IMG/VR virus record: IMGVR_UViG_3300028833_000086
Span: 1-64,000 of that record
Direction: 5' to 3' (one strand)
Origin: a virus
Lineage: Duplodnaviria; Caudoviricetes
Length of the DNA stretch: 64,000 bases
Numbering within the stretch: position 1 is the first letter of the stretch; every line of letters starts with the position of its first letter. The position numbers were made by a program, and so were the translations under genes. Positions 61 to 49,159 of this stretch are shown one piece after another. The notes beneath the pieces are model-generated. The model saw only the letters and a list, made by a program, of their open reading frames with translations, was not told where the DNA came from and searched no databases.

Positions 61-3000
61 TTACAACGAGTATTTACTCAATTTATTTTTACCGAGGGAT
101 GTCCCTATCGTCATCGATTGTACAATCTTTTCAAATGTAGGATCGCTCTTTGCCTTCTGTACGAAGTCTTCATAACTTGTTACATTAGGTAGAGCAAATG
201 ATACATTCATGCCGTTGACTGTAGTGTTACCACCAATATTACTAATGGTCTTAGGATTCATTGCGGCAAGAGGCTGCATCATTTTAAAGATACCTTGCAT
301 CTGTTTTACACGTTCGAGAGAGAGAACTTCTTCTCCACTACGAGCAAGGATTATACCGTCCTCACCAGTTTTCTTGATTGCGTGACCAATTGTACCACCC
401 TTAGCATATGCGCCTTTTGATATTCTAGTATTTATACCATTACTATCTAATTCGTCTAATAATTTTCTATAATAAATAAAAGAATCATAATAACTTCTAA
501 CTTGTTTTTCCGCATTATCTTTTGCAATTCCATCGGGTAATTTGTTCATATTATTTTTTGCTTGAGTATATGCATTTAAGTAAAATTCATACATTTTCTG
601 ATATTCTTTTCTTTTGGCTTCTAACGCTTTCTCAGTGGAATCATCATTTTCATCATTCTGTTTATACTTTTTATTGGTGCTAGGATCACTATTATTACTA
701 TTCGACGAGCTACTAGGCGTTACATTGATTTGAGCCTGTCTTTGCGCAGCACTAACAGCCGCCTGTGTTGCCACGGTAGCAGCAAGCGCCTGCAATTGTG
801 CAAGCTCATTGGATGCGTTTACATTTGCCGCCGTAATCATATTATTAATAGCGTTTTCGACATTATTAACTGTACCAATTACATCGCTTATACGCGCATC
901 AATGTTCATACCGAATGAAGTATTATCAAGTTCATATAAGAACTCGTCTGCTTCTGTCTGAATAGTTTGCGAGATACCTACGGCACTATCTGCGGTCTGC
1001 TGTATAGCCTGTTCTACCAAACCATCAAGATCGTCAAGACGATCATTGATAAGTTTCTCGAACGAGTTATACATATTATCCATCATCTTTTCTTGATCGG
1101 ACAACCACTGTTCATACTCAGTCTGCTGAAGTTCTTTTTCAGCAGCATTCAGATTATTTGCTAACTCCTGTAAGCGTGCCTGAGTTTCCTCAGAGTCATC
1201 ACCGCCGAGCGCAGATATCTGTTTCTGATAACTTGCAATAGCTTTAGTTTGTTCCGCTACGGTATTCTCATAGTCGTACAAACTCTTTTGAGCTTCCAAT
1301 GCCTCTTTACGTTTGTCAATTGACTTCTGTAAATAATCAAGGAACGTCTCATATCCTTCTTGGATCAGATCTTTAATAGCGTGTTTCTCGTCGTCTATAC
1401 CCTTAATAATATCTTGTTGCTGGTCAATGAGGTCATTACGACGCTCCAGTATCTTCTTATTATTAGGATCATTTGCGAGCTCTTTATTTATTTTCTTTAT
1501 CTCATCGGCATATGTCTCATTTTGCTTTTCAAGTATCTTTAAGTTATTAACATGTAATCCTTGTACAGCAAGCGCAGCATCACTCATATTACCATTTGCA
1601 TACAAGTCTTCACCGATGTATGCGATCTTTTCGAACATTTGCTCTTCGCCTTGAAGAACATCGATAAGGAAATTATTCTCCTCAGTCAGACGATTAACAG
1701 CGTTGGCAATGTAGTCAAACTTATCCCACTCAAGTTGTCTGAGTTGATCATTGAGGTCGGCGATTGTTGCACCCATCTCAACGATCTGGTCATTAACATT
1801 CTGAAGAGCATCATACATACCCCACCATTGTTCTGAGCCGTATGCAATGTCACCATTAGTTACAGCCTCATCAATGGACGCGGCAAGTGCTTGAGCTTCT
1901 TGTTTAAGCTGTCCGAGCTTCTCCTCATTGCCAGCCTTAAGCTGCTTAATAAGTGCGGCAGATTCGAAATATCCTTCGGACGCTATCTTGTTTTGAATAG
2001 ATCCAATGCGGTTAGCGGCATGATCAATAGCAAGTGCCATTTCTTCGAACTGCTTGGTAATATTGTCGAATCTTGTTTGTGCTAAATTTGCAATCTCTTG
2101 TTCAAGATCTTGAACAGTATCAATACACTCATTTGCGCGATCATAATAATCTTGGAAGTCACTTATTTGCTCTTTGAGCTTTTCGTCAGTAACGGTCTCA
2201 ATATCCATCATACCGTTCATGACTTTATCCATATATACAGGATTGAGTCCGACAGCATACGCTTCTTGCATATACGCATCCGCTGCTTGTTGTTGAAGAA
2301 GAATTTCTTCTTGAAGCTTTTCGTATTTGCCAGTTACGCCGCCAAGACGTTCTTCCCATTTCTTATACGTTGCATCGGCAACCTTGCCGAGATTGGTTAC
2401 GGCGCGCTGGATTTTCTTGATCGCACGTTCTATCCAGTCAAACTTTTGTTTGGAATCAGACTTGCTAGAAGTAGAAGAGGACTTAGACGAATTCCCATCA
2501 TAATTAGGATTTTCAATTTCTACATCTGACTCGTATTTAACTTCAACCCTTTCAAGATAGCTATCAAGATCAGCTTGCGCACTATCTAATTGTTTTTCTA
2601 AGGCTGCAATTTGATATGAATTATTCCCGTCTTCTCTTGCGGTTTTAAGCTGAGATTCAAGACTTTCAACATATTCTAATTTTTTCTTAGCCTCTGCTAA
2701 TCCCTGTATCTTATCAATAGATATATCTAATTGATCACAGAGCTTGATAAGATTTTTAACATCATCTGATGTTTGAATGTCCAAACTATTGGCTAAAATT
2801 CTTGCATTATAATAATCGCTTAACGCTTCAGTAGTAGCTATTGCCCTTAATTCTTCATCGTCAAATGCTCCTAATTCCTTATCGATATCAATATCTGCTT
2901 CTGCCGCCGCTTCTTTTGCTGCCGCATAAGTTTCCATGGTATAACCAAGCCTACTCATAACTACAGCTTCAGCATTGGTTACGCCCATCTCTGTAAGAGT

Positions 3001-6000
3001 TTTCTGCATTAATGCAGCTGTTTCACCAGATGCCTGACTAAGCGCAGGATTAAGACTGTCTACAAGTATAGTAGCGATATTATTAAACGCCTCTTGTACT
3101 TCTTCTTCTTTAGTAGCAAATTCATCTGATAATATCTCAGATGTAGACAAGGTCATGATGAATTCATTTACCGCATCGGTATCAAATCCCTCGCCGCCAG
3201 CCTCTTTAAGTGAAGCATCTAGAGATTCAATCTGAGCCCTAACACTTTCAATTTGTTCTGAGCTTACTTCGCTAATATCAAAACCATCAGTAGACCATAT
3301 AGCCTTATAGGCTTCAGCCATAGAATTAAATACTGGTTTATACTGAGACTCCATATTCTTGAGCATAGTAGAAGCATCAAGAGCCTTATCAAGATCAGAT
3401 GTAGCAAGAGCAAGCATATGGGCAGCTTCTTCATAAGTCTTGGCCGTTCCAAACACTTTCTGATTCCAGACATCTAATGTTTCAGAGGTTTTTATTCCTA
3501 AACTATCAAATTGTTCCCCAGTCATTAGACCAGACTCCATTGCTTTTTTACGAGCCTCGGCGATCTTATTATCTAATGTTGTCCTGTCATTATCTCTAAC
3601 ATTACTGTTATTGAGAAGCCAGTTTATTGCCTCATCATTAAGTAACCCAGTTTCATTAATAACTCTCTGTATTTCTAGTAATACCTTTTCTTGATCTTCA
3701 GAAAAACCAGAGGTCAATCCGCTTAGGTATTTTCTAATATCTTCAGATGTTAAACCGTAATTATTAGCTCTTTCCCCTAATGATCCAAGATATTGTTCAG
3801 CCGTCTGAGATTCACTTTCATTTCGTCTTCTTAATGCAGCTGTTACAGTGGTAGAACGTAAAGTATTATCAACTTCGGAGGCTAATATATCACTCATATA
3901 ATTTTTAAAATATGAGTCTGAACTTAACCAATTTTTAATACTCTTGTTATCTGTTCCAAAATATAGATTTTTTAAATTTTGTTTTAGAGCTTCTTCTGTC
4001 TCTTCAGTATTTTCTTGAACATTTTTGATGTAGCTATCCATCAAAAGGTCGTATAGATCGCCATATTTATCTGCGGCTTCAGTTTCTCCGTAGGCAAGAT
4101 AGGTGGATTGCCTTTCGTCTAATTCTTTTTGTAATTCATCAATATATGCGGTGATATATTCGGCAGTTGTATCATCTGCTTGTGTTCGTGCCTGTTTTAA
4201 TATTTTTATATCATCTTCAATATTTCCAGTAGTAAAATAATGTTCGTTTGTTTTCTCGTCATATTTAACGAACTGGCCGTACCCAAGATTTTGCAAAGCT
4301 TGATATAATGTTGATCCACTATCAAATCCTCTGAATTTACCTTCTTCAAAAAATGCGATAGTTTCTTCGAGTTCATTATTACCCCAGCCCGTCTTGGTTC
4401 CTCTTGCGGTATCTACTGTTTCTTTATTTTTTATTTGTCTATTTGTAATAAGTAATTTATTTTGTGCTTCAAGTCCCGCGTTTACATCTCCAATAAGAGT
4501 ACTATAATTATCAAAAGATTCATTAAGTTCGTCTTGGATATCTTTTAATTCATTTTCAGCCGCAATTATTTCATCCGTAGTTGAACGATTATCCTTAATT
4601 ACTTTATTACAATCTGCAATTCTTTTTGCATAATCCTCAAGGGATTTATTGGTTTCTTGATTTTCGTTTGCGAGATCTCTAGCTGCTTGTTGAGCCTCTC
4701 TGATACTTTGCTTGTATTTTGCATATGCGGTTACGATCACCGTGGCTATTACAGATGCTACGGCAACTCCAATATTTACCATTGCCGACATCTTGGCAGC
4801 ATGTAAAGCAGCTGCTTCTGCTGCGGCGTTTTGTGCATCGGCCAATCCTTCTACTGCGCTTTCGACCTTTGCAATACTTTTGGGAGAAGTACCAATTTGA
4901 GTCATTAAATAATCTTTTGCCTCTTTGGTTATTTTCTTCCCTCTTAAATCATTAAGATCGGTTAGATTATTGGCTACATCTTCAACGCCTAAAATAGTAG
5001 GAGCCGCTATATTAGGAGTCCTTAATGTTTTTACTGCATTTAATAACCCATAATTCTTGTCAGTAAGGACATGCGATTTAGCTGCAACACCAATACCCAA
5101 TCCAGCCAAAGCAGTTCCGACACCACCAAGTAAATCAGTAATTTCCTTAAGACCATTAATGAGTGTAGTACCAAAATCAATTACATCATTAATAAAACCT
5201 GAATCTACAAGACTAGTAATGAGCTCATCAACTGCGTTCTTAAACATAGTCATGTGTGCTTCTACGCTAGTAAGATATTTCTCGTTCTCGCGCATTGCAC
5301 TACCTTCAGCATCTTGAGCCGCCTCATATGCTTCCCGAATAGTATCAGGATTGGTCAAAATACTTGCTGCAATATTTGAACGGTTTTTACCAGCGAGCAA
5401 TTCTACAAGAGCATTGGCTCTGTTTGTACCTGCTTGCCTATCTTCGAGCTGGATCTCCTTATAAATATCTGCAATGTCTTGCATGATTTCATAAGTACTA
5501 CGAAGATTACCATTTTCATTATAGATATCAACGCCCTTGAATCCGTTTGAAGCAACAGCAGTATAATCCATAATGAGCTTACGAGTTTTAGATTCCGTTC
5601 TTACAACAAAATCATCAACACCTTCTCCAAGCTCGGCAAGTTCATCCTTTGCCTCTTTAGTACCCGCAATCCTAAGTGCAATTGTTCTAATACCAGTACC
5701 AGTTTTAAGAGCATCCTGAGTGATGACGTTACCACCAACTACAAGCGCAAGCGCCTCATTTAAATCATTACCCTGAGTAGTCAGTGCTGCTGCAGAGTTT
5801 TGAAGGGCAGTTGCAAGCTGATCAGTAGCAATAGGAAATTCATTACCAAGTTTATTAATCTTGTCGACGATTTCCATTTTATCAAGTTCAGCATATGCCT
5901 GAGATGCAGAGACAAGTGCCTGAGTTGCGCTATTAATATCTTGGAACTCAGATACGTTCATAAGGATCTGAGCTGCCTTTGCAGACTCAGCAGCTTCAGT

Positions 6001-9000
6001 AAGCGACTCACCTATACGCATCCAGTCAGCTGTAGATTGCTCAAGAGTAAGAGCAGAGGAACCTATGGCGTCAGCAGTATCGAACAATGTCTGTTGATAT
6101 CTTTCAAGAGAGTATCTTGTCTCATCAGATACCTTCATCATTTCTATCAATGCAGAATCATATTGCTTTACGACAGTAACTGCTTCACGCATATAGCGAA
6201 TGATGTCATAGAATGAGAAGAACTGTGCCAGCATCTGATAATTTTTGTGGCGCCATTCTTTCATAAAATTACCGAAGAATGTTCTATCGGACTTACTTAC
6301 CGTACCAGTAAGTTGAGAAATCTCTTTAGCCCAACCCTTATATTCTTCAGTTAATACTTCTCTAGCGTCATCATTTGCCACTTCTTGAAGTTGCCTTCTA
6401 AGTTCTCTTACACGAGACAGAACGGCAGGATCAGTCTTAACTTCGTTAATCTGTAGGTTATCTAATTTTCTGATAAGACCTTTTACGTCAAGCTTGTCTA
6501 CAACGGTTTGATTAATCGCTTCTCCGACAGTTTTTTGAAGATTTATTAATTCCTCTGTTATCGATTCAGTATCTATTTCAGAATAGTCATTATTATTTTG
6601 AGCGGTTTTAAATATATTTTCGAGCTCTTCGATTCTTTCTTTTGACTTTGTTATTGTGTCTTGTGCGGACTTGGAAAGATTTTTATCCTTGCCTTTATTA
6701 ATAGTATTATTTATACCAGCTATTGCGTTTAAAAAACCATTAATCTCTTTAGCTTTAGAGATTAAAGAATTAGATATTATGTCTAAATTATTTATTCCGT
6801 TTCTAATACCTTGAATTGCATCTAAACGTATCTGAACGGAATTTTCATTTGGTTCGTCAATAGAAGATAAAAGTATTTGCCCATTTTCGATTAATTCATC
6901 TTTTATAATTTGTAATGCATTTTTTAAAGTTTCATCTGTTGTTGATGCTAATATTTCGTTTATCTTTGTAATATAATCATTAATACCTTTATGTAAATTA
7001 TTTGAATTACTTCCTGATATATCTTCTTCTATATTTGTCCCAACAATAAACATATCCAACATAGATTGAAAAGGCATTTTTGTTGGAGCTTTTTCAGTGA
7101 AAAAATCCGAACCATTATATAGCTTATTTAGCTTATCATTTGAAATTATTGCATTATTTTTTATTGCCTTATCAGCTATTGTAAATAAATTTGAATCTAT
7201 AAAATTACTTAATTCATTTTTATTTTTAATATCGGTTCCAAGGTTATTAACTAATTCTTCGATTATGTTGGAAACAATATTTAGTTTTTGTATTTCATCT
7301 TCAGTTAGGGGTATCAACTCCTTATTTGTTACATCGACAAATTCACCTTGCTTATTTCTCTCATAGATAGAATAATTATTATCGGTTATTTTATTTAAAA
7401 AAGAACCTCTTAACAATCGTTCGGTATCCTTATCATTAAAGGAAATAATATCATCACCTTGTAATGTAACTCGTGATAAAAATTGGGCCGCTAATGATTT
7501 GATAATAGTATTTTTGAAAGCGTCTTGAATTTCGTTTTTATTATTATTGAGTAAATTGGAATAATCTATTGTAGATAATTTTCCAGAGCCAAAATCAATA
7601 ATTGAAGAAGCGAACTCATCAAAGGTGTTACTATAATTCCCTTTCTTTTTTTCAAAATCTACTTGCTTGATTTTATTTGATAAAGCTGAAAAATCATTTA
7701 TCAAATCTGCATATGATGGTATGACTACTCCGCTTGGATGGTTGTGAACTTTTTCTACCGTGTATGCACTCACTGGTGTGGAATGTGTTGAATCAGATTT
7801 TAATGCAGTGATAGCACTTTTTTCTTCATATATTTTATTATTATTACGATCTTTCGTAACATGAAAGTGCATTTCTTTAGATAGATCAATATCATTAGAG
7901 GTTAAATTATCAATAAAATTATCATATATTTTATCTATGATTTTTATTGTGTTAAGTTTTTTTTGTAATTTTTTTGTAGCTTTTTTAGCTTTTTCAGATA
8001 TATTATTCGGATATATCATCGTTTTATATTTATTATTATATTGTTCAGATGCGATATCCTCTAAGACATTATCATTTTTACTGGAGTTAATTATTGACAA
8101 TAATATTTTTTCTTGTTTATTTAAAAACTTTATTAATGATTCATCTAAATTATTTCCGATATTTGTATTATATTGTTTGATTAATTTTTCAAAATTAGAG
8201 GATGTATTTTTATTATTTTCTTTTTCATTAATATCTTTTGATTTATTAGAAATTCCTTTTTTAACATTAATCGTAGCACTATTTATTGTTTGTTTTGCAT
8301 TAGCAATATTCTCAGTTCCTTTAATGTTAATCGTTGCGCTATTAACATTTATGTTAGCCTTTTCAATGTTTTGATGTGCATTTGTCGTAGTTACATTTTC
8401 ATTAGTGTTTGTGGCCTCCGCTACAGTTTTATAACCCTTGGTAAGCATTGTATTAATAAGCTTACCAATCTCATTATCCTGATATTGCGGTGCAACTTTA
8501 AAGTCAACTCCACTCTTGAGAACATCATCTACAAATCTTTTTATACTTAATTCACTACCAAGTCCCTTTTCTTGTACTGTTTGCATGTCATACAATTTAT
8601 TAAAACGTTGAAACAGTTTTGACATTTGCTGTGCTTCTTGAGCTTTGACTTTAGATTCTTCTGAACTACTGGTGGTAGATTTAAATGCCTGAAGTGCATC
8701 ATCATATCCATTTCTAAGCATTGCATCTATAATGCGTCCAGTAGTTGAAGATGCGATAGCTTTTGGAGATCCAAATTCTGTGACACCAACTTTTCTTAAA
8801 TCTTTAACAAAACTCTCAATATTTTTAAAGTTTAGTTTATCATTAAACTCATCAGCTAATAGTTCATGAAAACGTTTATTGGCAAGAGCAATTAATTCAT
8901 CACGATTGGCAACTAAATTTGCCTCCTGTGTTTTGCTGGTGGTATTAACTTTTGCATCCGTTATATTTACATTTGCATTAGTGACTTTCTGTTCTGCGTT

Positions 9001-11097
9001 TTGTACATTATCTACTTTTTTATCTTTTTTAGATTCTTTAGAAATTTCTTGAGTAGTTTTAATCTCCGACTTAGATGTAATAGATGCTATATTTGCATTA
9101 GTAAATGTAGTATCGGCATTGGCTATATTGATTGTTGCTGTACCAACTTCAATGGTGGCGGCATCAATTTTCTGTATAGCATCTTTAATCTCTTCAGCCA
9201 CAGATTCACTTACGCCTTCCACGTCTTGTGAAAGTTCACCTAAAATTTCTTTCTGTCTTTTGATAAGAGATTCAAGTTGTTGATTATAGAAGGAAAGAGA
9301 TTTATCACTACCTCCTCCTTGAATCTTACTAGAAAGTTCTTTTATCCTGCGAGAGTTATCATTAAACTCGCCAATTAATGGGTTGGCTCCGTTAGGGTAT
9401 TTGGTCTTCTTTATGGCTTCAGGAACCGAACCATATATACCATCTACGAGTCCTTTGACAATCTGCTTTAACCTATTCTTATATAAATCAGAATAATCTA
9501 ATGTAGCCCCCGTTTCCTTTATTGCATTAACGAGCTGCATAATTTTATTAGGATCAATTTTGTCTAACGCCTCAAGTTCTTCGAATTGTTTATTAATCTC
9601 TTCAGATTGATTTTTACCCTCAACAATATTCGCATTTACATTAATTGGTACTGCTCCAAGTTCGTTAGATAATTGCTCTCTAAAATTTTTAATTGCAGAG
9701 TCTTCAATTTTTAATTTACCGACAGAGAAACCGTCTTTACTTAAACTATCTTTAAGTTTAGATATAGATCTATTTAAAGCATCAGAGAAGTCTTTACCAA
9801 ATGCGTCTTGTAAACCATAAATACGTTCAGCAAGTTTTTCGTCTATTTTTCCGTTCTTAGTATTTGCAAGCTGTTCTTTAATTGATTTTATATATTTCTT
9901 AGTCTGTGTAGTTCCCCATGAAGGATTAATTATTGCGTCTAATTCTACAGGGTTTTTATCAACATACTTTTGAAGATTATTAATTACCGCTTTAAGTTCT
10001 GCGATTAATTCAGCTCCAACGCCTTCTTTAATTACAACATCAGTGGTAATATCAGATGTAGTATTTTTTTTATCAGATTTTGTCTTAACTTTAGATTCAG
10101 TAACTGCTTTTTTAGTAGGCTCTTTAATTTCTGAAGGAACACTTTCAAGAGATTTTTTTATTGTGTTTATTGATGAAGTAAAATCGTTGGAAATATTCTC
10201 CATGACTGCATCAATAAAATCATATATTTCATCAAAGGTTCTATACACCTCTCCTTGAAGATTCGGGAAAGATTTGATCACCTCGTTAATACTTGCAGTC
10301 ATTTCTTTAGTTACGTTGTCGCCAGCACGTTCGCTGAGATCTTCCATTCCATAAAACGCGCTAAATGACTCTTTTAATTTATTTAAAGCATTTACTTGCG
10401 CTTTTGCCGCTTTTTCTATATCATCGGCAGATCCGAAATTAAGTTTTAAATCATTATATTTTGCTGTAGTATCTGCTAAATCTTTTAAATCTTTTTGTAG
10501 TTTTGTTTTTACTTTTTCAAATTCATCGTTTATATCATCAGCATTTGATAATTTAAAAATCTTTGAAACATCAATACTTTCTTCATCCACCTCGGCATTA
10601 ACAGATTGTAGTAATTGCTCGAATGATTTCTTTAATTTTTCTCCACCTTCTTGTATTGATTTGGTAGCATTATTAAGACTAGTGTCAATTCCAGTAGCCA
10701 TATTCCCAATTTCTTTGGTTATATTTCCAGCAACTTGTTTAACACCAACATCTCCAACATTAGATAATTGTTTGGAGAAATTATTCATTCTAGATGATAA
10801 AGCATCCACTTCAACTTTAACATCGGCAATTGCCGTGGCCAACATTGATAAATCGCTAAGCGTTTTAGGATCAAGTCCGCCCGCCTTAGAAAGCACATCT
10901 ATTTTATCTGTCATGGCGCTAATCTGTTTTACGGCACCAGCTAATGCTTTTTCTACATTTTTAAGCCTTGGCTCAAGATCCTTATCGAGTTTCATGTTGG
11001 CTAAGTCTTTGCTCATGCCTTGGATTTGGCTGCTAATCTCTTGAGTATTTTGGAGATCAACAGCAATACCAACGCTGATTACTTTTGATTTGCTCAT
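61..11097 (-). CDS. Tail tape measure protein (3678 aa) with an internal JAB/MPN-like motif
   Basis: Very long helical/coiled-coil ORF downstream of the tail genes. TMP core (YDSALIEMMKVSDET...KINKLGNEF...GTGIRTIALRI...LAGKNRSN). HNHPSGVVIPSYAD near aa 1118. Confidence 0.93.
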   Translation of the reverse strand: MSKSKVISVGIAVDLQNTQEISSQIQGMSKDLANMKLDKDLEPRLKNVEKALAGAVKQISAMTDKIDVLSKAGGLDPKTLSDLSMLATAIADVKVEVDALSSRMNNFSKQLSNVGDVGVKQVAGNITKEIGNMATGIDTSLNNATKSIQEGGEKLKKSFEQLLQSVNAEVDEESIDVSKIFKLSNADDINDEFEKVKTKLQKDLKDLADTTAKYNDLKLNFGSADDIEKAAKAQVNALNKLKESFSAFYGMEDLSERAGDNVTKEMTASINEVIKSFPNLQGEVYRTFDEIYDFIDAVMENISNDFTSSINTIKKSLESVPSEIKEPTKKAVTESKVKTKSDKKNTTSDITTDVVIKEGVGAELIAELKAVINNLQKYVDKNPVELDAIINPSWGTTQTKKYIKSIKEQLANTKNGKIDEKLAERIYGLQDAFGKDFSDALNRSISKLKDSLSKDGFSVGKLKIEDSAIKNFREQLSNELGAVPINVNANIVEGKNQSEEINKQFEELEALDKIDPNKIMQLVNAIKETGATLDYSDLYKNRLKQIVKGLVDGIYGSVPEAIKKTKYPNGANPLIGEFNDNSRRIKELSSKIQGGGSDKSLSFYNQQLESLIKRQKEILGELSQDVEGVSESVAEEIKDAIQKIDAATIEVGTATINIANADTTFTNANIASITSKSEIKTTQEISKESKKDKKVDNVQNAEQKVTNANVNITDAKVNTTSKTQEANLVANRDELIALANKRFHELLADEFNDKLNFKNIESFVKDLRKVGVTEFGSPKAIASSTTGRIIDAMLRNGYDDALQAFKSTTSSSEESKVKAQEAQQMSKLFQRFNKLYDMQTVQEKGLGSELSIKRFVDDVLKSGVDFKVAPQYQDNEIGKLINTMLTKGYKTVAEATNTNENVTTTNAHQNIEKANINVNSATINIKGTENIANAKQTINSATINVKKGISNKSKDINEKENNKNTSSNFEKLIKQYNTNIGNNLDESLIKFLNKQEKILLSIINSSKNDNVLEDIASEQYNNKYKTMIYPNNISEKAKKATKKLQKKLNTIKIIDKIYDNFIDNLTSNDIDLSKEMHFHVTKDRNNNKIYEEKSAITALKSDSTHSTPVSAYTVEKVHNHPSGVVIPSYADLINDFSALSNKIKQVDFEKKKGNYSNTFDEFASSIIDFGSGKLSTIDYSNLLNNNKNEIQDAFKNTIIKSLAAQFLSRVTLQGDDIISFNDKDTERLLRGSFLNKITDNNYSIYERNKQGEFVDVTNKELIPLTEDEIQKLNIVSNIIEELVNNLGTDIKNKNELSNFIDSNLFTIADKAIKNNAIISNDKLNKLYNGSDFFTEKAPTKMPFQSMLDMFIVGTNIEEDISGSNSNNLHKGINDYITKINEILASTTDETLKNALQIIKDELIENGQILLSSIDEPNENSVQIRLDAIQGIRNGINNLDIISNSLISKAKEINGFLNAIAGINNTINKGKDKNLSKSAQDTITKSKERIEELENIFKTAQNNNDYSEIDTESITEELINLQKTVGEAINQTVVDKLDVKGLIRKLDNLQINEVKTDPAVLSRVRELRRQLQEVANDDAREVLTEEYKGWAKEISQLTGTVSKSDRTFFGNFMKEWRHKNYQMLAQFFSFYDIIRYMREAVTVVKQYDSALIEMMKVSDETRYSLERYQQTLFDTADAIGSSALTLEQSTADWMRIGESLTEAAESAKAAQILMNVSEFQDINSATQALVSASQAYAELDKMEIVDKINKLGNEFPIATDQLATALQNSAAALTTQGNDLNEALALVVGGNVITQDALKTGTGIRTIALRIAGTKEAKDELAELGEGVDDFVVRTESKTRKLIMDYTAVASNGFKGVDIYNENGNLRSTYEIMQDIADIYKEIQLEDRQAGTNRANALVELLAGKNRSNIAASILTNPDTIREAYEAAQDAEGSAMRENEKYLTSVEAHMTMFKNAVDELITSLVDSGFINDVIDFGTTLINGLKEITDLLGGVGTALAGLGIGVAAKSHVLTDKNYGLLNAVKTLRTPNIAAPTILGVEDVANNLTDLNDLRGKKITKEAKDYLMTQIGTSPKSIAKVESAVEGLADAQNAAAEAAALHAAKMSAMVNIGVAVASVIATVIVTAYAKYKQSIREAQQAARDLANENQETNKSLEDYAKRIADCNKVIKDNRSTTDEIIAAENELKDIQDELNESFDNYSTLIGDVNAGLEAQNKLLITNRQIKNKETVDTARGTKTGWGNNELEETIAFFEEGKFRGFDSGSTLYQALQNLGYGQFVKYDEKTNEHYFTTGNIEDDIKILKQARTQADDTTAEYITAYIDELQKELDERQSTYLAYGETEAADKYGDLYDLLMDSYIKNVQENTEETEEALKQNLKNLYFGTDNKSIKNWLSSDSYFKNYMSDILASEVDNTLRSTTVTAALRRRNESESQTAEQYLGSLGERANNYGLTSEDIRKYLSGLTSGFSEDQEKVLLEIQRVINETGLLNDEAINWLLNNSNVRDNDRTTLDNKIAEARKKAMESGLMTGEQFDSLGIKTSETLDVWNQKVFGTAKTYEEAAHMLALATSDLDKALDASTMLKNMESQYKPVFNSMAEAYKAIWSTDGFDISEVSSEQIESVRAQIESLDASLKEAGGEGFDTDAVNEFIMTLSTSEILSDEFATKEEEVQEAFNNIATILVDSLNPALSQASGETAALMQKTLTEMGVTNAEAVVMSRLGYTMETYAAAKEAAAEADIDIDKELGAFDDEELRAIATTEALSDYYNARILANSLDIQTSDDVKNLIKLCDQLDISIDKIQGLAEAKKKLEYVESLESQLKTAREDGNNSYQIAALEKQLDSAQADLDSYLERVEVKYESDVEIENPNYDGNSSKSSSTSSKSDSKQKFDWIERAIKKIQRAVTNLGKVADATYKKWEERLGGVTGKYEKLQEEILLQQQAADAYMQEAYAVGLNPVYMDKVMNGMMDIETVTDEKLKEQISDFQDYYDRANECIDTVQDLEQEIANLAQTRFDNITKQFEEMALAIDHAANRIGSIQNKIASEGYFESAALIKQLKAGNEEKLGQLKQEAQALAASIDEAVTNGDIAYGSEQWWGMYDALQNVNDQIVEMGATIADLNDQLRQLEWDKFDYIANAVNRLTEENNFLIDVLQGEEQMFEKIAYIGEDLYANGNMSDAALAVQGLHVNNLKILEKQNETYADEIKKINKELANDPNNKKILERRNDLIDQQQDIIKGIDDEKHAIKDLIQEGYETFLDYLQKSIDKRKEALEAQKSLYDYENTVAEQTKAIASYQKQISALGGDDSEETQARLQELANNLNAAEKELQQTEYEQWLSDQEKMMDNMYNSFEKLINDRLDDLDGLVEQAIQQTADSAVGISQTIQTEADEFLYELDNTSFGMNIDARISDVIGTVNNVENAINNMITAANVNASNELAQLQALAATVATQAAVSAAQRQAQINVTPSSSSNSNNSDPSTNKKYKQNDENDDSTEKALEAKRKEYQKMYEFYLNAYTQAKNNMNKLPDGIAKDNAEKQVRSYYDSFIYYRKLLDELDSNGINTRISKGAYAKGGTIGHAIKKTGEDGIILARSGEEVLSLERVKQMQGIFKMMQPLAAMNPKTISNIGGNTTVNGMNVSFALPNVTSYEDFVQKAKSDPTFEKIVQSMTIGTSLGKNKLSKYSL

Positions 11098-38817: not shown

Positions 38818-40587
38818 TTATTTTATAATCGAACTTTTACGAATAGAAGATCCAAGTAAGTCTAACAAAGATTTTGTACTCTCATCATTTTTACGTTGCA
38901 TCTCGCGACCAATGATCTGAGCCACATAATAATTATATTCAAGACTTGAGAATCTATCCTTACGCATACCTGAATGTTCTTTGAGTTTAACCTTGTTATC
39001 TACAATCTTACCTTCGAGGTTAACCATCTCATTAACCAACGCAGTTGTCTGTGCGTACGGCATAAGTAATTTCACTTTTTCTTCAGTCGACATAGATGCA
39101 TAGCCAGCAACTTTTTTTACTACTTGCTCTGCATCATATTCATTGATTAATAGTGAGAGATTACCAGTCTGTATACCCGCACGAAGAGCAGTAGCCATTT
39201 CAGAGTTCTCTTGTGCATACGCCTTAATAGTCCATACGCACTTATTTGCGTTGGGCTCTCTACAACGTTCCGCCATGGCTACATCATTGCAACTACACAT
39301 AGCATCATATGTTTCACCAGTCTCCGCATCAAACTGCGGACGAGCGATAAAGTCATATACTGGAAGTCCAATACCATTTGTATCCAGTACTAGATCGGTA
39401 CACTTATAATGATTAAAATATCGCATTATAATAATACCAACCTCTTCGGTTGTTTTACCTTCAAAAGTTTCCACATAAACAATATGTGACGCCATTCCGT
39501 TATTACTAGGCGTTGCAATATTAATTTCTATTGCAGTAGCATCGTTATTGGTTGCCTTACTTGCCATGAGCGCAACATCCACAGATAATATTCGACGTTC
39601 ACCTTCTGCAAGATCAGGAACATTTATACCACGTTTTTCATAAAACTCAAATGGCAAGAAAGCATTCTTAATCACACGACAACTTGACACTTCGTCGTAT
39701 TTATAAAAAGCATCTTCCGCTTCGCCATAGAACAAAGCCTCACGTTCCATCCTAAATGAAATAGGATCAAAATCCGCTTCAGACATTTCGTCTTCAACAG
39801 CTTCTTTTGAAAAGATACCTTCTTCAATGCCAACTTCATATGGTAAGCCGCAGCAAAAATATCTCTTATTGTCATCTAGCATAAGCGCAGCATCAGACTT
39901 GCACTTTTCAAATATCCACGAACTCTTATAGTATGCGGATGTCGTATACATCTCTATATTTCTTTCCTGATATTTGGGATTATTTTTATATTCAGGCAGA
40001 TTCATATAGGGAGGTTTTCTGAGCGAGGTCAAGAATTTTTTAAGAACGTCTTGTACTATTTTTTTCTTAACCATTCTTGATTCATCTATTATTACTATAG
40101 TTGCACGATTACTACGAGCGGTATCACTTGCCGTAACAACTTTAATCCACGATCCATTTTTAAAAGTAACATGTGGATTATTTATTGCTGTAGTGATTTC
40201 TTCAATTTCATTTGATAGATTACTGCTACCCCAGTCATGTAATTTCATGAAGTCGGTTTCAATCTTACCTATAATCTCAACCGCCTGAGACTTAACTCCA
40301 GATGCTACACATACTTTTGTAGCGGGATAAAGAATACACCTAATCACACAATAAAGTGCAATTAAATACGTTTTGCCTAAGCCTCGGCTCGCGATCCAAT
40401 TGAAGACCGTACACAAATTCATTACATACAACAAAATTTTTTGAAATATACCCAATTGAATATTTAAAAACTCAGCAGCAAAGCGTTGAGGATTCGCACG
40501 ATAAAACGCTGTCCATATTGCCACACCTTCCATTAGGTTATCATATTTTTCCTGTTGTATCTGAGCAAAGCTCTTTTTATTACTCAT
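38818..40587 (-). CDS. terL: Terminase large subunit
   Basis: Walker A ASRGLGKT, Walker B IIIDESR, nuclease LSVDVA...NDAT, LDTNGIG, RKDRFSS. Confidence 0.93.
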   Translation of the reverse strand: MSNKKSFAQIQQEKYDNLMEGVAIWTAFYRANPQRFAAEFLNIQLGIFQKILLYVMNLCTVFNWIASRGLGKTYLIALYCVIRCILYPATKVCVASGVKSQAVEIIGKIETDFMKLHDWGSSNLSNEIEEITTAINNPHVTFKNGSWIKVVTASDTARSNRATIVIIDESRMVKKKIVQDVLKKFLTSLRKPPYMNLPEYKNNPKYQERNIEMYTTSAYYKSSWIFEKCKSDAALMLDDNKRYFCCGLPYEVGIEEGIFSKEAVEDEMSEADFDPISFRMEREALFYGEAEDAFYKYDEVSSCRVIKNAFLPFEFYEKRGINVPDLAEGERRILSVDVALMASKATNNDATAIEINIATPSNNGMASHIVYVETFEGKTTEEVGIIIMRYFNHYKCTDLVLDTNGIGLPVYDFIARPQFDAETGETYDAMCSCNDVAMAERCREPNANKCVWTIKAYAQENSEMATALRAGIQTGNLSLLINEYDAEQVVKKVAGYASMSTEEKVKLLMPYAQTTALVNEMVNLEGKIVDNKVKLKEHSGMRKDRFSSLEYNYYVAQIIGREMQRKNDESTKSLLDLLGSSIRKSSIIK

Positions 40588-41659
40588 CTAATGCGCCACC
40601 ATAGATCTTATTAAATATGTCTTCTGAATCCTCATCTATACTAAACTCTGGACGGGTGGCAGCATATTGACGCATATAGTCATCGTACATTTTAGAATAC
40701 TTATTCTTAATACCAAGCATTTTACATAAGTGTCCCAAGAAATAAACACTGATATATAATCCAATCTTATCTACATCTTTAAACTGGGGGTCTATATCGG
40801 CAACAGGACGTGTCTCTTCAAGTTTCTGTATAAGTTGTCCGTAAGACTCCACGCCACCAGTAACATCATTCTTATTTTGTTTAGGCGTAATATCACCAGT
40901 TTCCATAAGCTTTTGCAATGTAGCGGTTAACTTATCAGTGGATTCATTGTTAAGTCGCGCCTTATGCAATTCAAGCTGAGTGAATGCAATATTCTTAAAT
41001 AACTCTTCTTGAGCTTTAGAATTACATTCATATCGATCACACCAGTCAGAATACTCTGTTTCAAGAAAATGCAAATCATGCAAGCTGTATTCATTACCAA
41101 AATGTTTCTTGGCATTTACAAATATCTCATCGCTCTCGTCAAACTTCTCTTCAACTGGACGCTGCTCATAACTTCCAAACTTACTATCTTTCCACTTACG
41201 CCCCTTATACTGCGGCAGACTTTGTATCTGCGTAATATAAACAGCGAAAGGAGATTGATAAGTTTTTCTGTTGGTCGGATCATTCTTCTGATTATCCACA
41301 CCATTAACAGCGTTCATATACACTTCGTCATAATAAGGTTTATCCATAAGCTCAAGAACCTTCATTACGCTTTCCTTTGTTTCGTTAGGTGGATCAGATT
41401 CTCTTTTTCTTTGTTCTACCAACATCTGCACGCATTCTTTACATATAGGAAAATATCCTGCCTTAAAGCGTGCGTCTTTATAGAAGCCAGTATGATAACC
41501 AGTGTTACGCTTCCAGTTGTCGCACTTAGGACAATACATAATGTCACAGTCAAGCATTTTATTATAGGTGTCAGCAAACTTGCTATAAATCCTGCGCATG
41601 TCGGCGACACCAAGTTTTGATTCCTCGCCTAATGGCGCGGGTTGTAAATTCGTTGCCAT
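40580..41659 (-). CDS. Terminase-associated protein (probable small subunit, Zn-binding)
   Basis: CPKC...PICKEC; overlaps the terL start; SPbeta-like synteny. Confidence 0.65.
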   Translation of the reverse strand: MATNLQPAPLGEESKLGVADMRRIYSKFADTYNKMLDCDIMYCPKCDNWKRNTGYHTGFYKDARFKAGYFPICKECVQMLVEQRKRESDPPNETKESVMKVLELMDKPYYDEVYMNAVNGVDNQKNDPTNRKTYQSPFAVYITQIQSLPQYKGRKWKDSKFGSYEQRPVEEKFDESDEIFVNAKKHFGNEYSLHDLHFLETEYSDWCDRYECNSKAQEELFKNIAFTQLELHKARLNNESTDKLTATLQKLMETGDITPKQNKNDVTGGVESYGQLIQKLEETRPVADIDPQFKDVDKIGLYISVYFLGHLCKMLGIKNKYSKMYDDYMRQYAATRPEFSIDEDSEDIFNKIYGGALDE

Positions 41660-41684
41660 ATTTCACCATTTTATCCTTTTAATC

Positions 41685-41714
41685 AAAAGCCCTCGGCGCT
41701 TAACGACCGAGGGC
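41685..41714 (-). terminator. Terminator-like hairpin closing the ncRNA cluster
   Basis: GCCCTCGG...CCGAGGGC followed by TTTTGATT. Confidence 0.7.
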
Positions 41715-41715
41715 A

Positions 41716-41770
41716 AACATTTGTAGCGCGACTATTTTTATCTTTAGCGGTCGCGACGCTTATGACAGTC
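41716..41770 (-). ncRNA. H-type pseudoknot unit C followed by CAAAUGUU
   Basis: Stem 1 AGCG/CGCU, stem 2 CGCGAC/GUCGCG, A-rich loop 3. Confidence 0.65.
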
Positions 41771-41798
41771 TATAGGCTCCATGCCTCCATGGAGTCAG

Positions 41799-41855
41799 TG
41801 CAGCAGCAAGGAGTTGCACCTTGCCTCGGGGAATTCTCCCCAAACTGTAGCTGCA
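41799..41855 (-). ncRNA. tRNA-like element lacking a D-arm
   Basis: Acceptor-like UGCAGC/GCUGCA, one central hairpin, T-arm CAAGG-UGCAACU-CCUUG. Confidence 0.55.
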
Positions 41856-42005
41856 TAACAAAGGTTCCCGTAGGAACCTTTTCAGGTCACGGGCCCGCAA
41901 GCTTCCGTAACACGATCATTACTACCGCCTGTAATTACAGTCGATATGTATCATAGTAACTTAGCAGGAATATACGTCTCCCATAACGTTTAGATTTTAA
42001 TCAAA

Positions 42006-42035
42006 ATTTCAATATGCCTCACGTTACTATGAATA
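42006..42035 (-). ncRNA. Solitary CRISPR-repeat-like unit (type I-B-like)
   Basis: 30-mer TATTCATAGTAACGTGAGGCATATTGAAAT ending in an ATTGAAAT handle; no array. Confidence 0.5.
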
Positions 42036-42039
42036 AAGC

Positions 42040-42100
42040 AGCCGAGGGGGGATCGAACCTCCATTAAGATACGCACTAATTGCGTCCACAGCCATCGACC
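42040..42100 (-). ncRNA. tRNA-like element lacking a D-arm
   Basis: GGUCGA/UCGGCU acceptor-like stem, ACGCA/UGCGU hairpin, GGAGG-UUCGAUC-CCCCC T-arm. Confidence 0.55.
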
Positions 42101-42145
42101 CCAAAAAACAAAAGACGCCATAATTGATCAAATTTCATAACAGCT

Positions 42146-42235
42146 ATCGTTATCGTTCGTCGCTTATATAGGTGGACGTTCACCCATCTTTATCGTCCCT
42201 CGCTTCTTTTATGGTGGAGGTTCACCAATCTTTAT
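42146..42235 (-). ncRNA. Two tandem ToxI-like pseudoknot repeats (42 and 40 nt)
   Basis: AUAAAGAU-(U/G)GGUG-AAC(C/G)UC-CACC...GA(G/C)G; compensatory change in stem 2. Confidence 0.75.
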
Positions 42236-42250
42236 ATGACGTCTTCGAAG

Positions 42251-42539
42251 ACTCCTTCTACACATGACAGATGAGTTGAAAATTTTGCGCCCCCTCCACC
42301 TATAGGACATAAGCGAGAGGAGACAAAACATTTGAACCCCGAGCTTTTATATACCGCATCTCGGGTAGCGGGAAACATTTGGTTGCGTACCTTTTATTTA
42401 TGTCGATATACGCTCCCGACACAACATTTGCAAAAAACACTATGTATAAAACATAACGTCTTTAGTAACTCCTTCTACACATGGTAGTCGAGCTATCTGC
42501 GCCCCCTCCACCGCTAGGACAGCAGTGGAAGGAACGCAA
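42251..42539 (-). repeat. Duplicated hairpin scaffold (copies 42251-42325 and 42468-42539)
   Basis: Identical blocks actccttctacacatg (42251, 42468) and tgcgccccctccacc (42286, 42498). Confidence 0.85.
42327..42430 (-). ncRNA. Two tandem CptI-like pseudoknot units (49 and 47 nt) delimited by CAAAUGUU
   Basis: Three CAAATGTT at 47/49-nt spacing; each interval folds as an H-type pseudoknot with an A-rich loop 3. Confidence 0.78.
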
Positions 42540-42600
42540 TCACGGAAGGAAGAATCTATGAATATAATATAGAGGACAGAATTAGCCCTCTACGAGTGGA

Positions 42601-43818
42601 TTAATTAAGTTTATAAGTGTATTCGCACGTCTTTCCTTTACCACTTTCAAACACAAACATTGAAGCTCCAGCGTTTGAAGTTTTGTTAAGTGACATTCCA
42701 AATGGATCTACACCAATTATACTTCTAATATGGATTGCTTCGGCATTAATACCAACCTCAGTATTTTCGGCATGGTGTTTATGACCAGCTATTATATAAT
42801 CAAAGGACATATTATACGCTCGACCAATATCGTTTATAGCATCGGCAAGATTTTTAACCTCACCATGTATTCCAAGGACTGAGCTTCCCGCGAACACCCC
42901 GTAGTTCATTCCTGTCTCATTTTCCGTAACAATAATATTCTTATTATTTTTGAGACGCTCTTTTAAAAATGAACTAATTACCTTGCTCATATTTTCGTCG
43001 GGAAAAGCATTTTTGGGTGCCCCACACAGTCTAAGTTGATTATGATTGCTATCAACAACCATCTGGAAGTCGATAACTACATGTTCGCTCAAGGCGGTCA
43101 GCCAGTTTGCCATATACTCTGCATATAATAGAGAAGACTCAATCACTCCATATCTTAATTGCATTAACTGAGAATTAAGTCTTAACATCCCTTGGATACC
43201 ATCCCCAAGCTCCCACACAGATAATTTACGTATCTTTTCTCTTTTTATTGTTGTAACAACATCGGAGAGAAGAGCATTCATTCTCTGTTCAAATATCTCG
43301 GGGCTATAAGCGTTTACTATATTGCCAAATAAATCCTTGATCTCAAATTCTATACCATAATGAGCATCGGCTAAACACAGGAGATACTCCTTGTCGCTTT
43401 CGCCCACCGTCACAACCTTAGGAATCTTGATAGGCGGAAGAGTCTTAATTGCTTCTTTAATATGTTCAACAATCAATTCATCACGCGCTAATTCGCGTAT
43501 GTTTTTATTAAACTCAATTTTTTCACTTTGAATTTTATAACGCTCTTTTCGAAGACTACAAAGTTTATCATCAAATCCAAGGTTTCCTGTTGATCCATAT
43601 TTATTTTCATAATACTTCTTAACAGCATAGCCGCCAAATAAAGTACCATTTGCTTTTCTTAGTACATCGGTTGCGTAGGGAATATTATATATATCTTTTA
43701 ATTCTTCCCAATCTATATCAAGATTACCATCGAGCTTGTCCACGATATCCGACAGACACTGTTCATAATCTTCAACCGACATTCCTATCTTCTCAAGTTC
43801 TAATTCGATATTCTCCAT
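42601..43818 (-). CDS. Calcineurin-like metallophosphoesterase with N-terminal coiled coil
   Basis: ADAHYG, LGD, SNHNQ, IHGE and GHKHH motifs. Confidence 0.88.
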   Translation of the reverse strand: MENIELELEKIGMSVEDYEQCLSDIVDKLDGNLDIDWEELKDIYNIPYATDVLRKANGTLFGGYAVKKYYENKYGSTGNLGFDDKLCSLRKERYKIQSEKIEFNKNIRELARDELIVEHIKEAIKTLPPIKIPKVVTVGESDKEYLLCLADAHYGIEFEIKDLFGNIVNAYSPEIFEQRMNALLSDVVTTIKREKIRKLSVWELGDGIQGMLRLNSQLMQLRYGVIESSLLYAEYMANWLTALSEHVVIDFQMVVDSNHNQLRLCGAPKNAFPDENMSKVISSFLKERLKNNKNIIVTENETGMNYGVFAGSSVLGIHGEVKNLADAINDIGRAYNMSFDYIIAGHKHHAENTEVGINAEAIHIRSIIGVDPFGMSLNKTSNAGASMFVFESGKGKTCEYTYKLN

Positions 43819-47146: not shown

Positions 47147-49159
47147 TTAATTTAAAATTATTTCTCTAGCAAACTGCATGGTTTTGCTGCCACACATTTT
47201 GCCAAACAAAGCCCCCGCCTCAACAACGAGTTCTTTTTCCTCCTTTACGCAATCATCATAAACAAACTTAGGCAATACCTTCGCTACCGCCCCCATATCT
47301 TTAGGCGTAATCTCTGCAGGTACTTCACCGTCGTCGCGAAGTTTCTCAATTGCCTTTTCAACACGGCGCCTTGTAACAATGTCATCTACAATACGCTGGC
47401 ATTTTTCAGCATCGATAATTTCCTCTGGTGACTTTTCCCTAGGACGCGACTTGGTTTCTTTAAATGAATCATTAACTAACTTTAAATAAAACCACTTGTC
47501 AGTTCCCTCAAGTCTGTCCTGAGATTTAACCACACAACCTTCCTGTGTTGGCCCGTAATATCCATCGCCCGCCATAAAAGACTTTACATGATCCCATGAA
47601 ATAAATGGGCCATCATATAAAACATGAATATAAGTAAGTCCAACCTCGTCGCACATTTTCCTAACAAAAGTCTGTGGGAGGTAATGTCCAGTCGCATTGT
47701 CGTATATGTCGTATACTATCCAATGATTACGGGCGTATTCGGGCTTATAATCTTTAATGGCATTGCCGCAAAGATTCCACTCTCCAAATACCACCATCGA
47801 TTCATGACCGTTTTGAAACCAGCCGAGCAGCGTGTCAAGTTCTGTTCCGTACTGATAGAAACCATTGAGATTATTATTATAATCTAATACCTTATTTCTT
47901 GAGCACGCTACCAAATGTCCATCTTCGTAATATAAGGACGCATTAGAATTATGTGTTAAAATTCCATGTGCAAAAAAATTATGATTATCTTCCACCTCAA
48001 TATCGTATCCTTTACTACTACACATAGAACTTTTACATTCTTTATTTATTGAAATGATCTTATGTTCGTATAACGCCTTATCAGAGGGTATGAGTTTTTC
48101 AAAATAGTTATCCCAAAATGTATAAGACATTCTATACTCTTCAGGTAATTTATATTGCATTGACGGAATAATATATGGAGCGACTAACGAAAAGAAAATA
48201 TTACTTCCAACCAAATTCATATCTAGTTTATAATATTTATTTTTATAAAATTGAATATGACTTTCTATCCCATATTTCTCATAAAGCATATCTTTCATAT
48301 TTACTACTTCATCATATGAATAAGCTTCTACATGTAAAGATGCTCTATCTTTTTGAACAGAAGAGTGTTTTAAACTTCCGTCATCCATATACCATATACT
48401 TAATCCTATAGGTGTTAGATTTTTTATAAATTCTTTACTTATATATTTTTTATTATTTATTATTGCTTTCGATATTTCATCGTTTATACTAGGAAGACAC
48501 CTTGTTCTTCCTTGATACACTTTAGTACCATATCCACTTATTCCTTCTCGTTCATTACAAATAAAAGGAGATAGCAACCTAACTTTAAAATTGAAATAAT
48601 CTTTTTGCTGAATGGAATTACAAAAATGAATACCCTTATTAGCAAGTGGTCGCGTTGTAGGGTTTGGATAAATACTTCCATCGCCAAGAATACTTGCGTA
48701 TATAACTTGTTTTTGTATTTCTGTAGGATAAATAGCCGTTGAATATACACTATCTCCAACTTTTAATTCTCCTGCTGCGACATATCCGTTTTGAGTCCAG
48801 AATTTATGATTTGGTGTTGGATAAACCGATGCAGAATGACCAAATCCCTCCACTTTATCAAATGTAATTTTCATAAAATCTTGTCTACCATTATCCGACC
48901 AACCAATAACTTTTTTAGGCTCGACTTTTTGAGTTTCTGTATTATAAGATAGTACTTCCACGGAAAGTTTATTTTTTACTATTTCGCCAATGGTTTTTTC
49001 TGTTCCGTCTGCTAGTCTAATAGGTGTCTTACTAGGCAAACACCCGTCAACTTTAGTAGTAATTTGTATATGCTCTCCAACATTAAAACCCGACACATTA
49101 TTTTTGCGAAACTCAGTATCCTCTATACGAGCCGCCTCAATGTCTATAAATTTTTTCAT
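47147..49159 (-). CDS. ATP-dependent RNA ligase (Rnl2-like; about 305 aa after intein splicing)
   Basis: Motif I KVDG|SNAS, SRN, FGEW, YDI, EGCVVK, KLVN..FKE. Confidence 0.88.
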   Translation of the reverse strand: MKKFIDIEAARIEDTEFRKNNVSGFNVGEHIQITTKVDGCLPSKTPIRLADGTEKTIGEIVKNKLSVEVLSYNTETQKVEPKKVIGWSDNGRQDFMKITFDKVEGFGHSASVYPTPNHKFWTQNGYVAAGELKVGDSVYSTAIYPTEIQKQVIYASILGDGSIYPNPTTRPLANKGIHFCNSIQQKDYFNFKVRLLSPFICNEREGISGYGTKVYQGRTRCLPSINDEISKAIINNKKYISKEFIKNLTPIGLSIWYMDDGSLKHSSVQKDRASLHVEAYSYDEVVNMKDMLYEKYGIESHIQFYKNKYYKLDMNLVGSNIFFSLVAPYIIPSMQYKLPEEYRMSYTFWDNYFEKLIPSDKALYEHKIISINKECKSSMCSSKGYDIEVEDNHNFFAHGILTHNSNASLYYEDGHLVACSRNKVLDYNNNLNGFYQYGTELDTLLGWFQNGHESMVVFGEWNLCGNAIKDYKPEYARNHWIVYDIYDNATGHYLPQTFVRKMCDEVGLTYIHVLYDGPFISWDHVKSFMAGDGYYGPTQEGCVVKSQDRLEGTDKWFYLKLVNDSFKETKSRPREKSPEEIIDAEKCQRIVDDIVTRRRVEKAIEKLRDDGEVPAEITPKDMGAVAKVLPKFVYDDCVKEEKELVVEAGALFGKMCGSKTMQFAREIILN
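47948..49042 (-). mobile_element. Intein (365 aa) with a LAGLIDADG endonuclease
   Basis: Starts CLPSKT; block B TPNHKF; ILGDGS and WYMDDGS; ends YDIEVEDNHNFFAHGILTHN before Ser. Confidence 0.95.

Follow-up and report, generated by a model that had tools for sequence, protein, structure and literature searches.

A toxin-less two-unit cptI antitoxin array in the RNA cassette of a 123-kb phage, probably a decoy of the pseudo-ToxI kind

The minus strand of a 122.7-kb virus record (IMG/VR; CheckV completeness 97%) carries at 42333-42428 a complete two-unit cptI array, shown here to be near-identical to the array of the P0139-type CptN subfamily. The window referred to below is the stretch that was analysed, that is, the first 64 kb of this record. 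[quoted passage not shown] It cuts the transcript of its antitoxin repeats behind A45, and the pseudoknots so released form a 2:2 ring with the toxin that keeps it inactive (PMC4627078). In the phage, the array stands without a toxin gene, and it is probably a captured cptI antitoxin acting as an anti-defence decoy, by analogy with pseudo-ToxI of phage PhiTE, an RNA mimic of the ToxI antitoxin (Blower et al. 2012, PMC3475682).

Four copies of CAAATGTT, out of nine in the whole genome, lie on the minus strand inside 715 nt (42423-42430, 42374-42381, 42327-42334, and a fourth at 41716-41723). The first three form the boundaries CAAAUGUU that begin at 42430, 42381, and 42334, as an earlier reading made from the sequence only had noticed; their spacings are 49 and 47 nt, and each interval is an H-type pseudoknot (Table 1). 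In both units, the hairpin loop of S1 contains the 5' strand of S2, according to direct reading and to a pseudoknot scanner. The stems proposed in the sequence-only reading hold for unit A, the core UGUCG/CGACA of which extends to GUGUCGG/UCGACAU via G.U ends, and the stems and loop of unit B were recovered by direct reading and independently by the scanner. Since the units of natural cptI arrays are bounded by the same motif, CA|AAUGUU is likely the CptN processing site, in line with the toxin cleavage site suggested from the sequence; the analogue in CptIN is GUUGA|AAGUUU, with a 3' cyclic phosphate on A45 (PMC4627078). After boundary 3, where natural loci have a terminator and cptN, the phage has ~560 nt of other structured RNA.

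Table 1. Features of the RNA cassette and of its flanking genes, in window coordinates.
Feature	Position	Strand	Remark
Exonuclease-like gene	42601-43818		Flanks the RNA cassette
RNA cassette, ~940 nt	41660..42600	minus	ORFs ≤51 aa only; between exonuclease-like and packaging genes
Leader element, ~100 nt, two copies	42432-42539 and 42240-42326	minus	A+B lies exactly between the copies
Boundary 1, CAAAUGUU	42423..42430	minus	Predicted CptN cut CA|AA between 42429 and 42428, from PMC4627078
CptI-like unit A	42380..42428	minus	Predicted processed 49-nt monomer AAUGUUG...AACCA
Unit A S1, UGUCG/CGACA	42417-42421 with 42401-42405	minus	
Unit A S2, GCGUAU/GUACGC	42408-42413 with 42385-42390	minus	
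Unit A A-rich loop, UAAAUAAAAG	42391-42400	minus	
Boundary 2, CAAAUGUU	42374..42381	minus	Between A and B; kept in 6/6 sequences of alignment A6
CptI-like unit B	42333..42379	minus	Predicted processed 47-nt monomer AAUGUUUCCCGC...GGGGUUCA
Unit B S1, CCGC/GCGG	42368-42371 with 42354-42357	minus	
Unit B S2, CCCGAG/CUCGGG	42360-42365 with 42338-42343	minus	
Unit B A-rich loop, UAUAUAAAAG	42344-42353	minus	
Boundary 3, CAAAUGUU	42327..42334	minus	After unit B
Second tandem pair of small H-type pseudoknots, ~42 + ~40 nt	42152-42236	minus	
tRNA-like hairpins	41798-42101	minus	T-arm-like motif GGUUCGAUCC near 42050
Unit C, third pseudoknot, same topology	41721..41769	minus	Scanner; S1 AGCG/CGCU, S2 CGCGAC/GUCGCG, loop AAAGAUAAAAAUA
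Boundary 4, CAAAUGUUU, directly into intrinsic terminator GCCCUCGG...CCGAGGGCUUUU	41689..41723	minus	Terminator scan
359-aa ORF	40580-41659		phrog_3314 match; next gene after the cassette terminator; just upstream of the large terminase gene

Both units are assigned to the CptI family because of their homology to natural cptIN loci, which is the decisive evidence. A search with a pattern bridging units A and B retrieved a single metagenome contig, L242, otherwise dissimilar to the phage, in which promoter-proximal A-like and B-like units are followed by CAAAUGUUUGCCC, a terminator, and a 155-aa CptN. Homologues of the L242 toxin led to four further loci. By blastn, the phage A+B pair is 93.3% identical to L249/L250 (P0139) over 104 nt (E=1.2e-42), 91.8% to L247/L248 over 97 nt (E=9.2e-38), 85.6% to L244 over 104 nt (E=1.6e-28), and 83.7% to L246 over 104 nt (E=8.1e-26); the values for L242 are 85%, 102 nt, and E=1.5e-25. 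L249/L250 stem from bovine and other metagenome contigs, one ENA record being labelled bovine metagenome. Taken singly, unit A is 88% identical to unit 1 of L242 (42 nt, E=4.9e-8) and unit B 85% identical to unit 2 (48 nt, E=1e-9). The proteins encoded downstream of the cognate arrays reach 165-177 bits with NF047359 (cut-off 90), and the downstream CptN matches PDB 4rmo with E=1.7e-24. In all five natural loci (L249/L250, L247/L248, L244, L246, and L242), A and then B precede a single CptN, and on this homology A+B is assigned to one CptN subfamily as its native, heterotypic array. The P0139-type CptN gene occupies L249:701-1168, and contigs with the P0139 cptIN locus are as long as 207 kb.

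The stems are conserved together with the sequence. All four phage stems are identical to those of L249/L250, and every stem difference between the phage and the other natural loci is a compensated pair. In alignment A6, composed of the phage and the five natural loci, 126 of the 126 pair cells over 21 stem pairs are paired, versus 23-46% with slid partners; double changes number three (A-S1 U-A/C-G, A-S2 G-C/A-U, and B-S2 G-C/U.G), and broken pairs zero. None of the seven differences between the phage and L249 lies in any of the 42 stem columns (P=0.01).

The Eubacterium rectale CptI monomer quoted in the sequence-only reading proved to be the exact reverse complement of primer CptI-WT (PMC4627078). 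A pattern common to CptI(Er) and unit B is found at more than 120 bacterial loci, nearly all from Lachnospiraceae, laid out as a promoter, one to three 45-nt repeats, a terminator, and a 156-aa gene, which is CptN (PDB 4rmo, E=2e-77). With an HMM of 48 distinct E. rectale-type units (nhmmer), only unit B was matched in the phage (E=2.2e-6). A CptN profile search of 399 Clostridia genomes matched 15 genomes, and the DNA upstream of 13 matches was fetched. Several divergent Clostridia arrays are bounded by CAAAUGUUU, and their last boundary enters the terminator directly, as at phage 41723-41689; this boundary-plus-terminator layout is present in L142, L143, L148, L242, and L249.

Thirty natural units were aligned (A2). 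The pseudoknot is 79.6% paired in this alignment, versus 30-42% with slid partners, and double changes are observed in 12 of 12 pairs. The covariance model R1 was built from these 30 units without the phage, a single covariance model being unable to hold both pseudoknot stems. Unit B scores 52.5 bits on R1 (E=1.6e-10), while unit A, with 8.4 bits (E=9.8), is not recognised by it. The lack of any match to CptI models, put forward in the sequence-only reading as evidence against its own proposal, is not what was found: unit B is matched by R1, and unit A by the L242 array.

Natural cptI arrays are often heterotypic, with two unlike units per toxin. Among the divergent arrays, L140 harbors three unlike units, and G242 and G363 two each; in the G242-type subfamily, comprising at least 197 protein clusters, the two unlike units per array are constant. 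The GTDB family of G242 contains CptN relatives in 3 of its 67 genomes, none nearer to the phage. The more divergent of the fetched subfamilies mostly show two unlike units per array. In the E. rectale-type two-repeat loci (L009-L128), the repeats usually differ: CCAC/GUGG and CCGAU/GUCGG are the stems of repeat 1, and repeat 2 combines CCGC/GCGG most frequently with CCAAU/GUUGG. A 2025 survey of tenpIN characterises the toxI and cptI repeats known until then as mostly perfect repeats (PMC12283969). Two unlike units match the two RNAs of the 2:2 CptIN ring, which suggests heterotypic complexes.

The motif AAATGTT occurs at 41 sites in the 122.7-kb genome, and at exactly three of them an H-type pseudoknot rich in G+C, its loop rich in A, stands immediately before the motif. 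All three are located in one cassette, and the units are not scattered through the genome. The strict descriptor, which was designed after seeing the units, requires such a pseudoknot to end 2-7 nt before AAATGTT; in 40 dinucleotide shuffles it matches 0.075 times on average and never more than once. A loose H-type pseudoknot descriptor gives ~200 matches per genome and is not discriminating by itself. Nested minimum-free-energy folding of the units was not significant (z-scores -1.6 to +0.6), a null result that is uninformative because the units are pseudoknots. Rfam returned nothing relevant on the array at gathering or permissive thresholds, and GenBank phages gave no blastn match to the cassette.

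CptN was not found in the whole 97%-complete genome, either with two purpose-built profiles labelled A1 and A4 (one of 10 sequences and one of 17, the latter spanning 31-100% identity) or with NF047359 used beside them. The same profiles match viral contigs with a complete cptIN, used as positive controls, with E=5.5e-65 and 1e-57. A tblastn search with 22 toxins and hmmsearch --max in all six frames also found no CptN, the best E being 0.4, and neither did the L242 toxin used as query on the phage genome. ToxN (PF13958) is absent from the phage, and Rfam gives no ToxI-family match. The sequence-only reading had recognised no cptN in the window; this holds, and extends to the rest of the genome, where a CptN/ToxN homologue, the presence of which would have made the locus a true toxin-antitoxin pair, was likewise not found. 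No trace of a cptN pseudogene was detected anywhere in the genome. A weak tblastn match of CptN over 33 aa (E=0.008), located at 64.8 kb, was dismissed as noise; the ORFs there are HicA-like and unnamed small proteins. A scan for promoters and terminators found no sigma-70-like promoter before unit A, and the order of a CptIN locus (promoter, repeats, terminator, cptN) is not that of the phage array. Since it has no cptN, no sigma-70-like promoter, and a distant terminator followed by a packaging ORF, the array is an orphan antitoxin and not a toxin-antitoxin locus.

Besides A+B and the two ~100-nt GUCCU-loop hairpin elements on either side of it, the cassette comprises another pseudoknot pair and tRNA-like hairpins, although ARAGORN called no tRNA in it. 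The ~100-nt element may be the leader or scaffold of the cassette. It is formed of a 12-bp hairpin with a GUCCU loop, followed by GGGGCGC and then by the conserved CAUGUGUAGAAGGAGU. The second pair, with GGUG/CACC-like S1 stems and an S2 that covaries (CCUC/GAGG versus CGUC/GACG), resembles a ToxI-type repeat; its boundary, GAUAAAGAU, is unlike that of the CptI pair, and a pattern scan of IMG/VR retrieved it only from the twin of the phage. Unit C possesses no 5' boundary motif, has no match to R1, and has no homologue among the natural loci compared. Its 3' boundary region, by comparison with the end of the L242 array, shows 83% identity over 30 nt (E=0.034), and the boundary-into-terminator arrangement at 41689..41723 is how natural cptI arrays typically end on their 3' side. 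This terminator lies ~560-600 nt downstream of A+B and precedes the packaging-region ORF.

Related phages were located through this 359-aa ORF; seven related viral contigs retain it, with 78-99% identity. The upstream DNA is readable for six of the seven relatives, and CptI is missing in five of these six. The 99%-identical twin phage has the same cassette. In L135 and L137 (78-83% identity), the site and the leader hairpin are kept, the latter with compensatory changes (L135:2810-2870 and L137:2690-2740), before different cargo that is tRNA-like and includes no CptI; L133, L134, and L138 have no cassette. Because relatives keep the site and the leader without CptI, the array is classed, from these sequence comparisons, as accessory cargo in a swappable, variable RNA cassette. 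The IMG/VR scan for the A+B array in viral sequences gave only the 99%-identical twin, and with the array known only from the phage and this twin there is no within-phage evolutionary record of its conservation. The 359-aa ORF was considered as a novel toxin and rejected, as it is a conserved packaging-region ORF, mostly without CptI upstream, that adjoins the terminase.

Toxin-less CptI units are documented in two other large phages. One, a 107-kb genome that is 100% complete and has terminal repeats, contains a canonical CptI unit after similar pseudoknot-like units, and a 150-kb provirus of Mediterraneibacter hominis (91% complete) carries one canonical unit directly after tRNA-Asn; neither has CptN, and in both the CptI adjoins tRNA or tRNA-like RNAs. 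The chromosome of M. hominis NSJ-55 (L231) has an intact repeat and terminator with an internally deleted CptN (residues ~30-105 missing), and this host is a lysogen of the provirus bearing the toxin-less unit. A small contig harbors, near a serine recombinase gene, an orphan array of unlike units, with a complete cptIN elsewhere in that genome. The triple-boundary pattern, searched in IMG/VR, retrieved mostly unrelated tandem repeats and also the nine viral contigs with a complete cptIN taken as controls. These loci, comprising both the array and CptN, are L165, L183, L196, L197, L203, L208, L211, L222, and L226. The 2012 survey lists no cptIN on phages (PMC3401426).

Compared with CptI of CptIN (E. 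rectale, PDB 4RMO, PMC4627078; survey PMC3401426), the phage array, 93% identical to the P0139-type L249/L250 array, shares the H-type pseudoknot, the A-rich loop, the tandem arrangement of 45-49-nt units, a conserved boundary ending in A|AA, and the boundary-plus-terminator that closes the transcription unit. It differs from CptIN loci in having no cptN, no canonical promoter, and a terminator ~560 nt away behind other RNAs, and from the E. rectale type in having the boundary AAAUGUU instead of AAGUUU and units strongly unlike each other. Like pseudo-ToxI, the array is phage-encoded, is similar to the antitoxin RNA of a host, and comes without a toxin. The proposed mechanism would also be the same, pseudo-ToxI replacing the decaying host antitoxin and keeping the endoribonuclease toxin inhibited. 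The two cases differ in toxin family (CptN versus ToxN), complex geometry, and host phylum. Furthermore, the wild-type phage here has a full two-unit array with its processing sites intact, whereas PhiTE reportedly needed repeat expansion or recombination to escape. Escape is demonstrated for PhiTE and would be a prediction for the present array.

Racrs, the RNA anti-CRISPRs of phages, are solitary mimics of CRISPR repeats that imitate the guide or partner RNA of a defence system and sequester its effector. They differ from the phage array in target system and RNA fold, and no sequence relationship exists between the two. Orphan antitoxins and anti-addiction modules of bacterial chromosomes likewise represent antitoxins kept without a toxin, the difference being that the carrier here is a virus, so that the beneficiary is the invader and not the cell.

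As no toxin gene is present, the antitoxin RNA most likely disarms a host CptN defence during infection. Homology, toxin absence, and the pseudo-ToxI precedent make this decoy role, already advanced from the sequence, the best-supported function. The phage lineage would have captured the array from a host cptIN locus and would transcribe it during infection. Host CptN may then cut the transcript at CA|AAUGUU, releasing pseudoknots of 49 and 47 nt, which would re-assemble with CptN into the inactive ring complex. With the phage-supplied antitoxin persisting as host cptI expression falls, the abortive-infection trigger would never fire.

Other explanations have to be weighed against this decoy function. 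It is improbable, although the most plausible of these alternatives, that the array is a neutral relic, either leftover host DNA or a phage cptIN module minus its toxin, useless to the phage. Complete cptIN loci do ride on the nine viral contigs above, arrays with a missing or truncated toxin also exist in bacteria (L231; truncated toxins, PMC3401426), and the array is found in one phage lineage only. However, no trace of a cptN pseudogene exists anywhere in the genome, the four stems and three boundaries are all intact, and the seven differences from the nearest natural array all avoid stems (P=0.01). Moreover, the array sits between the copies of the cassette leader and not beside a decayed gene, and toxin-less CptI recurs in unrelated large phages. 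That the array represents some unrelated H-type pseudoknot, such as a riboswitch of preQ1-I or SAM-II type, a frameshift element, or a regulatory element, has a negligible likelihood. Two stems and an A-rich third loop are a topology common to such elements, but Rfam yields nothing at either threshold, and the identity of 83-93% to arrays preceding CptN genes effectively refutes it.

Two further proposals, both unlikely, concern what a functional array would do. In the sequence-only reading, A and B were each aimed at a different CptN variant. CptI antitoxins are strictly cognate-specific, and non-cognate CptI RNAs do not neutralise (PMC4627078), so that, in principle, each of two unlike units might serve a toxin of its own; units of clearly different subfamilies are indeed joined on some other mobile elements (L108 and L129). 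This idea loses its support since A+B, in the same order, is the native array of one toxin subfamily, with only one CptN behind it in each of the five natural loci. The G242-type subfamily likewise has a constant heterotypic pair, and in E. rectale-type arrays, too, the two repeats differ consistently. Slightly less probable still is a role in processing, in which pseudoknots and CAAAUGUU would serve as punctuation releasing the neighbouring cassette RNAs, such as the hairpin elements and the tRNA-like RNAs, toxin neutralisation being incidental. The units do lie among further separate structured RNAs, the cassette ends with a fourth boundary, and the provirus has its CptI unit right after tRNA-Asn in a tRNA array. 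Yet the only known nuclease for the site is CptN, which the phage lacks, and the three qualifying AAATGTT sites out of 41 all belong to one cassette. Punctuation is also disfavoured because related phages run the cassette, with leader and tRNA-like cargo, without a CptI unit. The decoy function remains the preferred account of the array.

A broader reading, held tentatively and considered rather doubtful, regards the whole of 41660-42600 as a modular RNA anti-defence island. It would consist of the conserved leader hairpin as a scaffold for expression or stability and of swappable cargo, each cargo mimicking a different host RNA partner of a defence nuclease, and would also represent the first natural evidence for an anti-phage CptIN in native Clostridia. 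The cargo would comprise the CptI pair, the second, ToxI-like pseudoknot pair, unit C, and the tRNA-like hairpins, with relatives swapping cargo.

The biological role of CptIN has been open since 2012. The system functions as a toxin and antitoxin and makes plasmids more stable, phages of the native hosts having been unavailable in the studies (PMC3401426, PMC4627078), and in E. coli it gave no protection against coliphages (PMC3401426; PMC4627078). A wild phage keeping an intact, toxin-less copy of one specific cptI array would be evolutionary evidence for CptIN acting against phages in gut and rumen Clostridia. The literature searched includes pseudo-ToxI, TifA, and tenpIN in viruses, and phage-borne CptI was not found in it. 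Phage RNA mimicry of a type III antitoxin is thus already known, and what appears new here is the CptN family and the host phylum. If this is true, antitoxin RNA mimicry would no longer be confined to one Pectobacterium phage but would include another toxin family and another phylum. The P0139-type CptN and the phage A+B array constitute a concrete pair for testing.

The large terminase of the phage displays 42% identity to YonF of Bacillus phage SPbeta, and its closest match is from an uncultured human-faecal phage. From its terminase, the 123-kb virus appears related to SPbeta-like phages. Just past the window, a 67-aa ORF resembles the HicA toxin (PF07927, E=5.8e-9; G000:C1:64544-64747, equivalent to L243:545-748), and the 88-aa ORF that follows it could be a HicB partner. 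An RNA ligase gene at 47147-49159 (minus strand) is split by an intein that contains a LAGLIDADG homing endonuclease domain, according to Pfam. The structural region includes a giant single ORF of 3678 aa at 61-11097, also on the minus strand.
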